From NCBI GenBank assembly GCA_027050205.1, contig JALUCS010000123.1, forward strand, positions 1 to 26,308: a stretch of DNA of 26,308 bases. The letters run 5' to 3'. Positions 3,001 to 9,000 of this stretch are shown here, in pieces. The stretch is from a candidate division WOR-3 bacterium. Its GTDB lineage: Bacteria; Hydrothermota; Hydrothermia; LBFQ01. Within the stretch, counting starts at the first letter, position 1, and each line of letters opens with the position of its first letter. A program made the position numbers.

Positions 3001-6000
3001 GCGATGGGGTCGAGGTCGTCCATTATGGCTACTGAAGGCATATAGGGTATTGTACGGTGGAAGCCCGGACACCGCCTTTAGAATACCGGTTGGATATGCT
3101 TAGGGGAACCTGGAGAGTGAAGGTAGGGCTGGCGCAGATGCTGAAGGGTGGGGTGATAATGGACGTTACTACGCCGGAGCAGGCCAAAATAGCCGAGGAG
3201 GCGGGTGCCGTCGCCGTTATGGCGTTGGAGAGGGTCCCGGCCGACATCCGCAAGCAGGGGGGAGTGGCCCGGATGGCCGACCCCGAAATCATCCTCCGGA
3301 TAATGGACGCCGTCACCATCCCCGTAATGGCCAAGGTCCGTATAGGCCACTTCGTTGAGGCCCAGATACTGGAGGAGCTGGGGGTGGACTTCATAGACGA
3401 GAGCGAGGTCCTGACCCCCGCCGACGAGGAGAACCATATAGACAAGCACCCCTTCAACGTACCCTTCGTATGCGGAGCCAGGGACCTCGGTGAGGCCCTC
3501 CGTCGCATAGCCGAGGGGGCCGCCATGATAAGGACCAAGGGGGAGGCTGGCACGGGGAACATCGTTGAGGCCGTCCGGCACATGCGCCGCATAAACCGTC
3601 AGATAAGGGAGCTTACCACCAAGGACCCGGAGGAGTTATACACGGCCGCCAAGGAGCTGAAGGCCCCCTACGAGCTGGTAAAGTACGTGGCGGAACACGG
3701 ACGCCTCCCCGTCCCCAACTTCGCCGCCGGTGGCATAGCAACGCCCGCCGACGCTGCCCTGATGATGCAACTCGGGGCCGAGGCCGTGTTCGTGGGTAGC
3801 GGCATCTTCAAGTCCTCCAACCCCCGCCGTATGGCCGCAGCCATAGTTGAGGCCGTGGCGTACTACGACAACCCCAAGGTACTGGCCCGGATCTCCCGCG
3901 GTCTCGGTGAGCCGATGCGCGGTTTGGACGTACATCAGCTTAGGGAAGAGGAACTCCTCCAGACCAGAGGCTGGTGATGAGGATCGTCATAGCCAACCAG
4001 AAGGGGGGCGTGGGTAAGACTACGACGGCCGTCAACCTATCCGCCGCCTTGGCCTTGATGGGGGACAGGGTACTTCTGGTGGACGCCGACGCCCAGGCCA
4101 ACGCCAGCATAGGGGTGGGTCTGGGGAACCGCAACCCCAACCTCTACCACGCCCTCATAGGCCTAACGGACGTACGGAAGGCCATATACCCTACGGAGGT
4201 GGAGGGTCTGGACTGCCTTCCATCCTCCCCGGACCTCATAGGGGTGGATGCCGAGCTGAAGGGTGCGGACGGGTGGGAGTACCGCCTTAGGGACATCCTA
4301 AGGGGTTTGGACTACGACTGGGTCATCATAGATACCCCGCCGTCCCTCGGAACCCTCACCATCCTATCCCTAACCGCGGCTGACAGGGTGATAATCCCCG
4401 TACAGGCCGAGTACTACGCCCTTGAGGGCCTGGGGCAGCTCCTTGAGACCCTGAAGTACGTCATAAACCTCCTGAACCCCCGCTTGGACCTGATGGGGGT
4501 ACTCGTGGCTATGTACGACCGGAGGGTCAGACTCTCAAGAGAGGTCTACGAGGAGCTGCGGAGGTACTTCGGGGACAAACTCTTCAGGTCCGTCATCCCC
4601 CGGAACGTCAAACTGGCAGAGGCTCCGAGCTTCGGGAAGCCCGGCGTCATATACGACCCCTCATCCCGCGGGGCCATAGCCTACATGGAGCTGGCCAAGG
4701 AGATAAGGGATGCCAAGGGGAAGCCGGCTCGGTAAGGGTCTGGGGGCAATATTCAGTCAGAAGGATGAGATAAGCCTCCAGCGGTACGTACCCATAGACG
4801 AGGTGGTACCCAACCCATACCAGCCCCGCAGGGAGTTCTCCGAGGAGGAGTTGAGGGAGCTGGCCGAGTCCATAAAGGCCCACGGTATGCTCCAGCCCAT
4901 AGTCGTCCGGGAGAAGGATGGCCGGTACGAGATAATAGCCGGAGAGAGGCGCTGGAGGGCGGCCAAACTCGCCGGCTTAGACAGGATCCCCGCCGTAATA
5001 AGGGAGGTGGAGAGCGAGGAGGAGATGCTGGTCTTCGCCCTCGTTGAGAACCTACAGAGGGAGGACCTGAACCCCGTAGAGAAGGCCCTCGCCCTCAAGA
5101 AACTGAAGGAGGACTTCAACGCCACGGATCAGGAGATAGGGAGGATAATAGGCAAGAGCCGGAGCGCCGTTACGAACACCTTGAGACTCCTGGAACTACC
5201 GGAGGAGGTCCTAACCCTCCTCGCCGAGGGTAAGATAAGCGAGGGACACGCCCGCGTCCTCTTGAGGTTGGGGGACCCGGAGAGCCAGATAGCCTGGGCG
5301 AAGAGGGTAGTTGAGGAGGGGATAAGCGTCAGGGAGTTGGAGAGGCTCCTGTCCAACCGGAAAGATGAGGACGGCTGGGTGAGGGAGTACGAGGAGAGGA
5401 TAAGGAGCAAGGGGCTGAAGGGTCGGATAAAGGCCGGAAAGCGCAGCCTGACCCTTGAGCTGAAGTTCAAGAGCAGGGAGGAGCTGGACGACTTCTTAGG
5501 GAGGTTGGCAGAAAAATGAACGGTGTCCAGTACGGAGATAAAATGAAGGGTTCTATGCTTCGGAAAAAGGCAAAGAGGGGTAAGAAGAGGAAGGACCACG
5601 GGGTGGTATGTAGGTGGTGCGGGTCCCGGAACGTGGTAAAGAACGGAAAGAAGGCCGATGGCAGACAGACGTACCTGTGCAAGGACTGCGGGAGACGGAT
5701 GGTGGAGAAGCCGAAGTACAAGAGGATGAGGGAGGAGGACCTGAAGGTAGCGTTAAAGTTGAGGAGGGAGGGGATGAGCTACGGGGCGATAGCGAGGACG
5801 TTGGGATACGGTGAAACCACGATAAGGTGGCATATCAAGAGGGTCCTAGAGGAAAGTTGAACGTCGGTCGCTTTTCAACGTTGATAGAGGGTTAGAACTG
5901 TTCCGTATAGCCTTTAGGTAGTTTAACGAGGACGACCCCACCCTCCGGGTCCACCTCCCGTACGTACTCCTCCACGAAGGGTACGTATATCCGCTTACCG

Positions 6001-9000
6001 TTGGACATCTCCACCTCAAACGTCCAATAGGGTCCCCACTCGTGCATATCCACGACCTTACCGACCTCCCTTCCCTCCGTATCCACCACCCTTAGACCTA
6101 AGAGTTGATAGATGTAGAACTCCCCCTCCTCCAAGGGGGGTAGGTCCTCCTCCGCCACTTCCACGTAGAGGTTCCGCAGCAACTCCGCTTGGTTGATATC
6201 CTCAACCCCTTTGAGCTTGAGGACCACCGTTCCCTTCCTTCTCAAATAGGCCCTCTCCACTTCGTAAGGGCGATGGAGAATATACACCGTCTTCCCAACG
6301 AAAAAATCGGGAGGGTGGGAAGTTTGAACCTTTACCTCCCCACGCCTCCCGGAAGGACGCGTGATGCGACCTACCTTTACCCTCTTCAGATTATCTCCAC
6401 CTTTACGACCTTACCCTGCTTGCGGCCCACGGCTTCTACGATGCGGCGGATGGCGTTAGCCGTCTTGCCCTGACGGCCGATGATCTTGGCCTTGTCGTCG
6501 GGGGAGACCTCTATCTCGTAGATGACCGCCTTCTGGCCGGCGATCTCCCTGATGGCTACCTGATCCTGGTTATCCACCAGCGCCTTGATGATGTACTCCA
6601 GGAGCTCCCTGATGTTCGTCATGACTCACCTCCTTGTTATGTGGTTGGTTGTGTTCCCTGCTTCCTGGCCAGCTTAACGAGGGCCTTCACCCTTGCCGTC
6701 GGCTGGGCACCGCGCGAGACCCAGTACTCGTACCGTTCAAGGTCTATCTTCCACTCACCCTCCCTCTTCGGGTTCAGGTATCCAAGTATGTCTATTACCT
6801 TACCGTCCCTCGGAGTCCTGCTGTCGGTTACTACTACCCTGTAGCGGGGATCGTTCCTCTTACCGGTCCTCTGCAAACGGATCTTCACCATAACGGGTGT
6901 GTATTATACAGCGGAAACGGTCGGCGTAACGCCCTACACCCCAAAGGCCCTCTTGGCCTTAACTATGCCCTCTACGAGCCGGTCTACGTCCTCCTTCGTG
7001 TTGAAGACGGAAAGGCTCGCCCTAACGCTCTGGTTGTAGGGGATCCCCAAGAACTTGTGGAGGGGATGGGCGCAGTGGCCCCCGGACCGGACCATTATCC
7101 CCAGCTCCCCGAGGTACCAGGCGAGGTCGTGGGGGTGTAGGCCCTTGAGGTTGAAGGCTACGAGGGAGGTTCTGTCCTTGGGGGGTGGGCCGTAGACCTC
7201 CACGCCTCCAACGGAGGAGAGGGCGTCGTAGAGGTAGGCCGTAAGCTCCGTCTCGTGGGTGTGTATGGCTTCGTATCCGATCTCCAGGACGAAGTCCACG
7301 GCGGCCCCCAACCCTATCACCCCTCCCACGTCCGGGGTCCCAGCCTCGTACCGCTTGGGTGTCTCCTCCAAGGTGTAGTCCTCAAAACCCACGTCCTTTA
7401 TCATACTTCCGCCTACGAGGAGCGGTTCTCCCTCCTTCAGAAGCTCCATCCTACCCCAGAGGATGCCCGTACCCATAGGACCGAAGACCTTGTGTCCGGA
7501 GAAACCGATGAAGTGCGCCCCCGTTTCCCGGACCTTGACCTCCCTGTGGGCGAGGTACTGCGCCCCGTCCAACACGACCACCGCCCTCATCTCCTTGGCC
7601 ATCTTAGCGACCTCTTTGAAAGGCGGGACGGTCCCCAGAACGTTGGAGGCCATCGTAAGGGCCACCACCTTGGTGTTGGGTGTCAGTTTCCGGCGGAAAT
7701 CCTCAAGGTCCAGATAACCGTCGGGCGTTACGTTGAAGATAACGAACTCGGCCCCCCTGTTGCGGGCGAGCCTCATCCAAGGTAGGAAGTTGGCGTGATG
7801 TTCCATTACGCTCACCAGTACCCTGTCCCCCTCCCCGATGCGGTTGGCCAGTATGGAGGCGGCGAGGTTCAGGGCCTCGGTGGCGTTCTTGGTGAATACC
7901 ACCTCCTCCGGTCGTGCGTGGATGAGGTTGGCCACCTTCTTCCTCGCCTCCTCGTAGGCTTCGGTGGCACGGTTCGCCCAAGGGTAGCCCCCTCTGTGGA
8001 CGTTGGCGGGGAAGTTCTCGTAGTACTCAAGGGTAGCCTCTACAACCTTCCTCGGTTTCAGAGCCGTCGCCCCAGAATCCAGATAGACCACTCCCTCCCG
8101 TAAAGCGGGGAACTCCTTCCTCAAATCCAACATAACGGTACATTCTAACCCCGCTTCAGCCGTAGGATAGGTGGGGGTGCATAGGCCCTTTGACCTGTAC
8201 GTGGAGGACTACGACCACTGGTTCGTAAGCAAGGGCAGGGAGGTCTATAGGTACGAGCTGCGGGCCATATGTGAGATGTTGGAGGGGACGTCCGGGAGGG
8301 TCCTTGAGGTGGGGGTCGGGACGGGCAGGTTCGCCGGCCCACTTGGGGTACCCTACGGTCTGGATCCCTCCATCCCCTCACTGAAGGTGGCGAAGGGTAG
8401 GGTCAGGTATCTGGTGGCCGGAAGGGGGGAGGAACTCCCGTTCAGGGATGGGGCCTTCTCCACCGTCCTCCTGATAGTGACGGTGTGCTTCCTTGACGAC
8501 GTAGAGGCTACGGCGAGGGAGATAGGGAGGGTGTTGAGGCCGGGGGGCCACCTCCTCTTGGGCTACGTCCCCCGCGACAGCCGCATAGGGAGGGAGTACA
8601 TCCGCAAGGGTGAGGAGGGACACCGCTTCTACTCCTACGCCCGCTTCTGGAGTACGGAGGAGCTCCTTGAGGTCTTCGGCAGGCACGGCTTCGTACGGGA
8701 CGGTTTCAGGAGTGTCGTCCGAAGGGGCGATGGCTACGCCGTAGTGCCAACGGAGGGGGAGGAGACGGTCTTCAGCGTCCTAAGGCTCGTCCTAAGTCAA
8801 ACCTCGTAGGTCTCCGCGCCCATCCTCTTGAGGTAATCGGCAACGGGTCGGGGTAAGAAGTTGGAGACGTCCCCGCCGAGGGAGAAGATCTCCTTGACGA
8901 AGGAGGAGGAGAGGTAGGCGTACTTCTCGGAGGAGAGGAGGAAGATGGTCTCTAACTCCGGGTAGAGCTTCTTGTTCATCCACGCCATCTTCATCTCGTA

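Follow-up and report, generated by a model that had tools for sequence, protein, structure and literature searches.

Extremely reduced endosymbionts have lost ffh and ftsY, the genes for the protein parts of the pathway in which the signal recognition particle (SRP) delivers membrane proteins, as it does in most cells. Outside that setting, Leptospira, Dehalococcoides and SAR86 have been described as lacking SRP (PMC4758666; for Leptospira also PMC10066597), with a thin cell proposed as the reason in Leptospira (PMC4758666). In Streptococcus mutans and mitochondria, membrane insertion proceeds without SRP in the presence of a YidC/Oxa1 insertase (PMC8546722, PMC8321541), and SRP-null E. coli is viable with suppressor mutations in initiation factors (IF2, IF3) or ribosomal protein S3, at the price of about 5 times slower growth, indicating that SecYEG, YidC and SecA suffice when translation is slow (PMC7844537). 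Natural loss of SRP is thus already known in kind, contrary to the premise of the survey's finding that SRP is universal. No survey of SRP loss appears in the accessible parts of PMC12826062 or PMC7203096. How is a whole inner-membrane proteome inserted without SRP? The question has been open since the Leptospira loss.

Here we analysed a 26,308-nucleotide stretch (the window) of a Hydrothermia genome, G000, together with its relatives across the phylum WOR-3. Hydrothermia as a whole lacks ffh, ftsY and the gene for the 4.5S RNA, most simply through deletion in the ancestor of the class. As in Leptospira, Dehalococcoides and SAR86, all three SRP components are gone and the Sec machinery (SecYEG, SecA, YidC) is kept; the cultured strain sy37, a 0.3-µm rod, also recalls the thin Leptospira cell. 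Unlike those cases, the WOR-3 losses span two whole classes and two lone genomes and have left deletion scars, and no extra low-complexity gene was seen near yajC or secY in the few WOR-3 genomes read per locus. Unlike the reduced endosymbionts, SRP-less WOR-3 genomes are mostly 1.2-3.3 Mb in size and keep outer-membrane biogenesis, as indicated by Skp in 30/30 genomes. The suppressed E. coli strains are laboratory mutants that bear a heavy cost, whereas residue W22 of S3 is unchanged in all 11 Hydrothermia genomes read. Zeros for this class were published without comment in 2025: in the rows seen of Table S4 of PMC12542636, ffh and ftsY are scored 0 across a 47-genome Hydrothermia block that includes the closed sy37 genome, and also in an 11-genome block assigned to class UBA3073 in 7 rows. 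The main text of that paper never mentions SRP, ffh or ftsY, and the supplement of PMC12285271 contains no SRP terms. The RNA, the gene order and the count of losses are not in that table and come from the present analysis.

The survey's entry is placed at the rpsP-khpA-rimM locus of the window (Table 1). In G000, neither ffh nor an SRP RNA gene can fit between sufS and rpsP because the gap is only 42 bp, and no SRP family is among the Rfam matches anywhere in the window. The position of khpA after rpsP is the same in 27 other genomes read, and rimM probably starts at a CTG that overlaps the khpA stop. The parA gene was rejected as an SRP GTPase, its match being a weak P-loop cross-match of the SRP54 profile. 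Relatives make the region a plausible scar: in 6 Hydrothermia genomes from 5 families rpsP has rpe directly upstream, and sister-class genomes have rpe in front of ffh. Adjacency of ffh and rpsP was, however, seen at none of 39 ffh loci (19 + 20, one of them ending at a contig end) and none of 8 rpsP loci read in SRP-bearing WOR-3, so the ancestral order rpe-ffh-rpsP is inferred rather than observed. As a loss site the locus is plausible through these relatives (rpe-rpsP) and not in the rearranged G000.

Table 1. Features of the rpsP region and the parA gene in the window.
Feature	Position	Strand	Basis
sufS-family cysteine desulfurase	6934..8133	-	TIGR01979, 467 bits; directly upstream of rpsP
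sufS-rpsP gap, 42 bp, with TATAAT hexamer	6892..6933	-	from sequence
rpsP (S16)	6637..6891	-	TIGR00002
khpA, KH-domain RNA-binding protein	6386..6622	-	NF001748, 77 bits, under the curated cut-off; position
rimM, 165 aa	5892..6389	-	PF01782 and PRC barrel; sequence
parA	3974..4735	+	ParA/MinD families; 13.1 bits to PF00448

Given that SRP was deleted in a free-living class, its membrane proteins must use another delivery route. We favour, with a probability of roughly 0.55, the reading that SRP was lost several times while Sec was kept, and that SecA, together with direct docking of ribosomes or mRNAs on SecYEG/YidC, takes over. Under this reading no dedicated replacement would have been invented after the loss; membrane proteins would reach SecYEG/YidC by routes that run parallel to SRP in other bacteria, either through SecA bound at the ribosome exit or through ribosomes or mRNAs that bind SecY or YidC directly. 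SecA and SRP use a common site on uL23 (PMC6692507), and membrane-bound mRNAs have been reported to bypass SRP (PMC10066597). The SRP-less lineages still have SecYEG, SecDF, YajC, SecA, trigger factor and a single YidC, the SecY C4/C5 loops are conserved, and the uL23 surface, judged by eye, is kept. Counting against the SecA route, E. coli SecA targets only some membrane proteins. Of the machinery that the survey listed as retained in G000, we found SecY, SecE, SecG, SecD, SecF, YajC, YidC, trigger factor and a TatC homologue; secA is missing from 2 of 40 Hydrothermia assemblies, G000 and G039. Thin cells and slow growth may make a fast SRP shuttle dispensable, which could account for its repeated loss; the cell width of 0.3 µm and the doubling time of 10 h (PMC12285271) both come from one SRP-less strain, sy37.

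Could the phylum instead possess a delivery system of its own? It is possible, if rather less likely, that an undescribed SRP-independent pathway delivers polytopic inner-membrane proteins throughout WOR-3, by a special mode of SecA or by a ribosome or mRNA tether. If so, it would make SRP redundant, explain four clean deletions, and be open to purification from sy37. We regard as unlikely the proposal that SRP gave way to some dedicated targeting factor, so far unrecognised, be it a protein or an RNA and be it common to the phylum or specific to a class. Up to four losses within one phylum do suggest a common pre-adaptation, and sy37 has 1,107 hypothetical proteins among its 2,083 genes (PMC12285271), but our screen, which covered the neighbourhoods of sec genes, revealed no gene family that SRP-less genomes share and SRP-bearing ones lack in 4,983 ORFs from the surroundings of secY, yidC and secA, and no common inserted gene at yajC, tig, secG, secE or secDF (3 to 5 genomes each). 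The Jag_N domain occurs in 2/2 Hydrothermia genomes, in 0/2 of the second class and in the SRP-bearing genome tested as well, and a Tim44/Mba1 domain was found in 0/5 genomes tested. The survey had named YidC, SecA, trigger factor or an unknown factor as the other route; that another route inserts the membrane proteome agrees with our reading, but no unknown factor emerged at the sec loci examined.

A remodelled SecA, its zinc-finger tail replaced by a basic tail that tethers it to the ribosome as a stand-in for SRP, appears distinctly improbable. The zinc finger is absent in 19/25 Hydrothermia SecAs and present in 17/18 SRP-bearing ones, 8 of the Hydrothermia SecAs carry K/R runs of 5 or more, and the E. 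coli zinc finger is described as binding ribosomes, with alternative tails often basic (PMC6620043). However, the zinc finger is kept without SRP in the deepest-branching families f6/f7 (6/6), in 4/5 second-class genomes and in both lone genomes, a basic tail also occurs in one SRP-bearing genome, and the ranges of net charge overlap (+2 to +12 versus +5 to +9). The swap seems to have been about one event within Hydrothermia, later than the loss of SRP. Convergent residues were likewise rejected as a signature of SRP loss, none being specific: no SecY residue change is common to all SRP-less lineages, and the few SecA columns common to both SRP-less classes also occur in SRP-bearing families f33-f35. 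First-helix hydrophobicity of SecY and YidC showed no consistent shift, in a comparison of low power with temperature uncontrolled. Ultra-short export leaders on Skp, with starts assigned by eye, were found in 3/12 Hydrothermia, 0/6 second-class, 0/2 lone and 2/10 SRP-bearing genomes; on this single marker their distribution thus does not follow SRP loss, and they were dismissed as its cause or effect.

Compensation by a duplicated YidC or a ribosome-binding YidC tail, for which S. mutans offers a precedent (PMC8546722), is very improbable. YidC was found in 28/30 genomes but as a single copy in all 28, and the Hydrothermia proteins stop shortly past the last helix, in line with the survey's remark that a long basic C-terminal tail is lacking; longer tails are seen both in SRP-bearing genomes and in part of the second class. 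Unlike S. mutans and mitochondria, there is here one YidC, without a long basic tail, and no Mba1-like tether in the 5 genomes tested. Equally hard to credit is a Get3/TRC40-like ATPase that carries hydrophobic clients post-translationally. PF02374 occurs in 26/64 Hydrothermia genomes, an ArsA form combined with an HSP20-like domain in 11/11 genomes of f6/f7, and the published table scores arsA without arsB in the part seen (PMC12542636); yet PF02374 is missing from G000, from the 11 others of its family, from all 8 genomes of the family that contains the near-closed genomes and from all 22 of the second class, and it is present in 18/186 SRP-bearing genomes. This patchy distribution refutes a general substitute of that kind.

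How many times, then, was SRP lost? Separate losses took place in a second class and in G108, and likewise, less firmly, in G084, so that across WOR-3 SRP was probably lost up to four separate times. The survey's ancient, complete loss holds for Hydrothermia as a class, by profiles, gene order and the published table, but not as a single event in the phylum. An AU test rejects a single loss common to both SRP-less classes (p=0.0011), and the lone genomes bear scars on intact contigs, with flanking genes joined where relatives carry SRP genes. At the ffh site, G106 and G107 read rpe-ffh-pcrB-like, whereas G108 reads rpe-pcrB-like with a 4-bp overlap; G083 reads tatC-ffh, and G084 tatC-rpsP. The smc gene adjoins ftsY in 22/29 positive loci and in G106 and G107; in G108 it overlaps another gene, and ftsY does not follow smc in either lone genome. 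The gene that precedes the RNA in 11 sister-class loci directly abuts dnaX in G108, and in G084 and 5 second-class genomes tRNA-Ala(CGC) is followed by dnaX with no RNA between, as against tRNA-Ala-RNA-dnaX in G080 and G083. In Hydrothermia, a single smc query found the gene in neither G057 nor G260, and in G013 it lies at a contig end, leaving the ftsY site unread in the class. Two further genomes that lack both genes, G118 (85% complete, 8% contaminated) and G226 (75% complete), were left out of the count.

A single deep loss followed by regain through gene transfer in the sister class is, in our estimate, highly improbable. The root of the phylum tree depends on E. coli alone, and the outgroup of the Ffh tree is just 4 Firmicutes, the only usable sequences among 11 loci from a wider scan with one Ffh. 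Regain would nonetheless require three unlinked loci to return to their usual sites (smc-ftsY, RNA-dnaX); moreover, sister-class Ffh forms one clade (100/100) among WOR-3 Ffh and largely tracks the species tree, and both lone genomes are nested within SRP-bearing clades.

The absence itself was established with profiles. PF00448 gave no real match, neither Ffh nor FtsY, in 64/64 Hydrothermia genomes: the best, 30.3 bits over profile positions 3-118, is an AAA_22 ATPase, and true matches score about 230-260 bits among the matches listed. The M domain (PF02978) was found in 0/64 Hydrothermia and 0/22 second-class genomes versus 163/186 other WOR-3 genomes. As the survey reported, the best PF00448 match in G000, at 19.4 bits, is MeaB. 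A divergent or split Ffh or FtsY in G000 was rejected, since neither tblastn nor six-frame, unfiltered searches with profiles based on 19 Ffh and 29 FtsY sequences of WOR-3, together with N- and M-domain slices, gave a match (best 13.3 bits, P-loop only). Six PF00448-type matches in the second class proved to be FlhF, the single SRP-type GTPase there, which lies between flhA and flhG at 6/6 loci (neighbours named by eye) and lacks PF02978. Control searches recovered SecY in 59/60 and SecA in 78/80 genomes. RF00169 matched 0/40 Hydrothermia and 0/14 second-class genomes versus 23/26 other WOR-3 genomes, and the RNA adjoins dnaX in 22 of the 23 positive ones. Upstream of dnaX, the helix-8 motif was found in 0/19 Hydrothermia regions and our own RNA model was negative at 23 dnaX loci, its positive control being a training sequence; a relic RNA there was rejected. 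G000 gave no RNA match either, but its assembly lacks dnaX, making that result uninformative: the reported absence of the RNA stands at class level, and, with secA missing as well, G000 alone proves little, as the survey had cautioned. That SRP genes are present after all, but diverged beyond recognition or left out of incomplete assemblies, is the least probable reading: although G000 lacks secA and dnaX, closed, SRP-bearing G149 gave no RNA match, and the genome-wide runs of RF01854 and our own model covered a set of 5 genomes that included no positive, true Ffh or FtsY occurs in 0/86 genomes of the two SRP-less classes versus 182/186 in the SRP-keeping classes, completeness reaches 90% or more in 44/64 Hydrothermia genomes, two of which are in 3-4 contigs, flanks are joined on intact contigs, and the closed sy37 genome is scored 0 for both genes in the published table (PMC12542636, in the part seen). 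The survey's contrast with other WOR-3 classes therefore holds for most of them but not for the second class. The G084 assembly is 5% contaminated and carries two smc copies, which bears on the reading of that genome.

The loss described here covers whole classes of free-living diderms, among them the Hydrothermia of hot environments, and SRP-keeping sister groups provide natural controls, such as G107 for G108. The deposited thermophile sy37, with its closed genome, is suited to ribosome and translocon biochemistry. Both ffh and ftsY are standard single-copy completeness markers, and the completeness of SRP-less genomes may therefore be underestimated.

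We put the probability that the signal recognition particle (SRP; Ffh, FtsY and the 4.5S RNA) has been lost from the whole class that the survey's finding names Hydrothermia at about 95%. None of its 64 genomes, which span 20 genera and 12 families and of which 44 reach at least 90% completeness, gives a real match to PF00448, the best being a partial match of 30.3 bits on an AAA ATPase; the M domain, PF02978, is absent from all 64, and the SRP RNA model RF00169 has no match in the 40 of them searched. Control genes were found in sets from the same genomes (SecY 59/60, SecA 78/80, YidC 28/30). 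The class-wide absence reported in the survey's finding stands. In an independent source, Table S4 of PMC12542636, with row counts made by eye, ffh and ftsY are scored 0 throughout a 47-genome Hydrothermia block that includes the one-contig genome of the cultured strain sy37.

The MAG that holds the window, GCA_027050205.1, fits this pattern but, as had been cautioned, proves little alone. The SRP54 profile scores at most 19.4 bits in it, on MeaB, and unfiltered searches with profiles made from 19 Ffh and 29 FtsY sequences of the WOR-3 phylum, N and M slices being run separately, reach at most 13.3 bits, on P-loops only. Also missing from the assembly are secA and dnaX, the latter adjoining the SRP RNA in 22/23 RNA-positive genomes, and gene order is scrambled in the genus, so that synteny cannot show gaps there. 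By a rough count, 152 of 1,846 ORFs have at least three hydrophobic segments, and the membrane-protein load is therefore real. Shuffling in this genus is unusually heavy: genes mostly 60-95% identical are largely non-syntenic, and the S10-spc-alpha ribosomal operons of the MAG are split into at least five places (contigs C83, C115, C118, C95, C93).

Is this one class's event, as had been supposed? The class-wide absence stands, but a second class, the lone genome G108 and, likely, the lone genome G084 have lost SRP too. Strong PF00448 matches occur in 188 of the 272 phylum genomes. Six come from the second class (22 genomes) and were rejected as Ffh or FtsY, since they lie between flhA and flhG and are FlhF, and the M domain is found in 0/22; RF00169 finds SRP RNA in 0/14. 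We infer that this class is the 11-genome zero block for ffh and ftsY in the available part of the PMC12542636 table, where seven rows name class UBA3073. The other 186 genomes include 182 PF00448 positives; the four misses, identified by elimination from the listed positives, are G084, G108, G118 (85% complete) and G226 (75% complete), the last two being set aside and not treated as losses. RF00169 has no match in G084 or G108. Separately, the closed genome G149 encodes Ffh and FtsY and matches neither RF00169, RF01854 nor our own WOR-3 RNA model; its SRP RNA was missed, is divergent or has been lost.

In a FastTree phylogeny of the phylum, built on up to 30 genes from 60 rows, many of them sparse, Hydrothermia and an SRP-bearing class are sisters (support 1.0), and G084 and G108 nest beside G083 and G107, respectively. 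A clade uniting both SRP-less classes, a grouping chosen after the first tree had been seen, is rejected by an AU test on 23 of the 60 rows (LG+G4, quick search; p=0.0011). Ffh of the sister class is monophyletic and branches largely as the species tree of that class does (27/30 rows recovered, Firmicutes as the only outgroup). Two class-level losses are firm, a separate loss in G108 is well supported, and another in G084 is likely.

Deletion scars can be seen at the SRP loci. Where G106 and G107 have rpe, ffh and a pcrB-like gene, G108 has rpe and the pcrB-like gene with a 4-bp overlap, its flanks matching those of G107 at 49-63% identity. ftsY adjoins smc in 22/29 positive loci and in G106 and G107, whereas smc of G108 overlaps an unrelated gene; the gene preceding the SRP RNA in 11 sister-class loci directly abuts dnaX in G108. 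G083 has tatC-ffh and tRNA-Ala-RNA-dnaX, and G084, with 5% contamination and a second smc copy, has tatC-rpsP and tRNA-Ala-dnaX. The order tRNA-Ala then dnaX, with the SRP RNA absent, is likewise seen in at least five genomes of the second class. In bacteria, ffh-rpsP is a common gene order. Because rpe lies directly upstream of ffh in 20/22 sister-class loci and 36-58 bp ahead of rpsP in six Hydrothermia genomes of five families, the class arrangement fits excision of ffh from rpe-ffh-rpsP, to judge from gene order; ffh stands beside rpsP in none of the SRP-bearing WOR-3 loci read.

No replacement for SRP was found among the candidates. The class YidC is single-copy and tail-less, Tim44/Mba1 is absent in 5/5 genomes searched, and Get3-like ATPases are patchy (26/64 in the class, 0/22 in the second class, 18/186 in SRP-bearing classes). 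No gene family near secY, yidC or secA tracks SRP loss, nor do ultra-short export leaders on Skp; the few genomes read share no extra gene at yajC, tig, secG, secE or secDF, and the ribosome-facing loops of SecY are unchanged. In SecA, a tail of variable and often basic sequence has taken the place of the zinc finger in 19/25 class versus 1/18 SRP-bearing genomes. As a precondition of SRP loss this swap was rejected: the finger is still there in six deepest-family class genomes, in 4/5 from the second class and in G084 and G108, and the tail change therefore came later.

Several features of these proteins were seen in passing (table). In family f1, yidC lies outside the rnpA-yidD-yidC-jag-mnmE operon, and jag is missing downstream of second-class yidC in 8/8. 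An ArsA/Get3-like ATPase with an HSP20-like domain occurs in 11/11 genomes of f6 and f7, the same families that retain the SecA zinc finger, and a short ArsA-like ATPase gene overlaps the secA end in two genomes of genus g3. In f1, in f8 and in two families that have SRP, Skp starts with Met and about 6-10 hydrophobic, uncharged residues. Families f1 and f2 show insertions of 4 residues in the tunnel loop of uL22, which is also extended at a terminus, and of 3 residues in a loop of uL23. The Gly at the uL23 loop tip (E. coli 71) gives way to another residue in 10/10 genomes of the class, a change shared by SRP-bearing f13. uL29 of SRP-bearing f19 and f20 (120-152 aa) ends in a long lysine-rich C-terminal tail.

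We lean slightly toward cells that rely on routes known beside SRP elsewhere, by analogy with the papers cited here. SecA at the ribosomal uL23 site, common to SecA and SRP (PMC6692507), would serve as one SRP-independent route, and direct mRNA binding to SecYEG/YidC as another; mRNAs bound by SecYEG and YidC encode proteins that insert without SRP (PMC10066597), and E. coli survives ffh deletion once initiation is slowed (PMC7844537). Thin, slow-growing cells such as sy37 (0.3 um wide, doubling in 10 h; PMC12285271) would fit SRP-free membrane insertion, echoing the geometric argument proposed for Leptospira (PMC4758666). Natural SRP loss has been published for Leptospira, Dehalococcoides and SAR86 (PMC4758666). 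We found no text noting it in WOR-3, in a search whose coverage excluded most subscription journals, so that a statement elsewhere is possible; the words 'signal recognition particle' do not occur in the WOR-3 papers searched, and PMC12542636, with its tabulated zeros for ffh/ftsY, is silent on them in its main text. What this analysis adds is the repetition of the loss, the deletion scars, the exclusion of substitutes and a connection with a cultured strain.

Features of the window and of loci elsewhere
Feature	Location	Strand	Remark
sufS, rpsP, khpA, rimM	window, 5892-8133	-	42-bp gap between sufS and rpsP
IS1-like transposase, short piece	window, 5516-5860	+	directly after rimM
rplS	window, 803-1195
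V/A-type ATPase subunits I, K, E, then MoxR-like AAA ATPase	window, 15151-18040 and 14220-15167	-
GC-richer stretch	window, 18360-18560		in the gap before Rsr/Ro60
Rsr/Ro60 gene	window, 18702-20294	+	preceded by a 660-bp gap
yidC outside operon, f1	locus L161; MAG contig C115:16348-17724
uL22/uL23 features	MAG contig C83:47177-47608 and C83:48741-49055; locus L079
ArsA/Get3-like ATPase with HSP20-like domain	loci L322-L332
Short ArsA-like ATPase gene	loci L352:5558-6271, L353:2378-3163
Skp with uncharged hydrophobic start	loci L400, L401, L397, L383, L373
uL29 with lysine-rich tail	loci L108, L109, L110

Nothing SRP-like lies within the sufS-rimM span, and SRP families are not among the two weak Rfam matches of the window; the finding is an absence, and testing was therefore needed on the whole genome and its relatives. 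In the window trmD is not next after rimM; rplS lies at 803-1195. Rfam and tRNA searches gave no match in the gap before Rsr/Ro60, where the GC-richer stretch might be a Y-like RNA or a leader.
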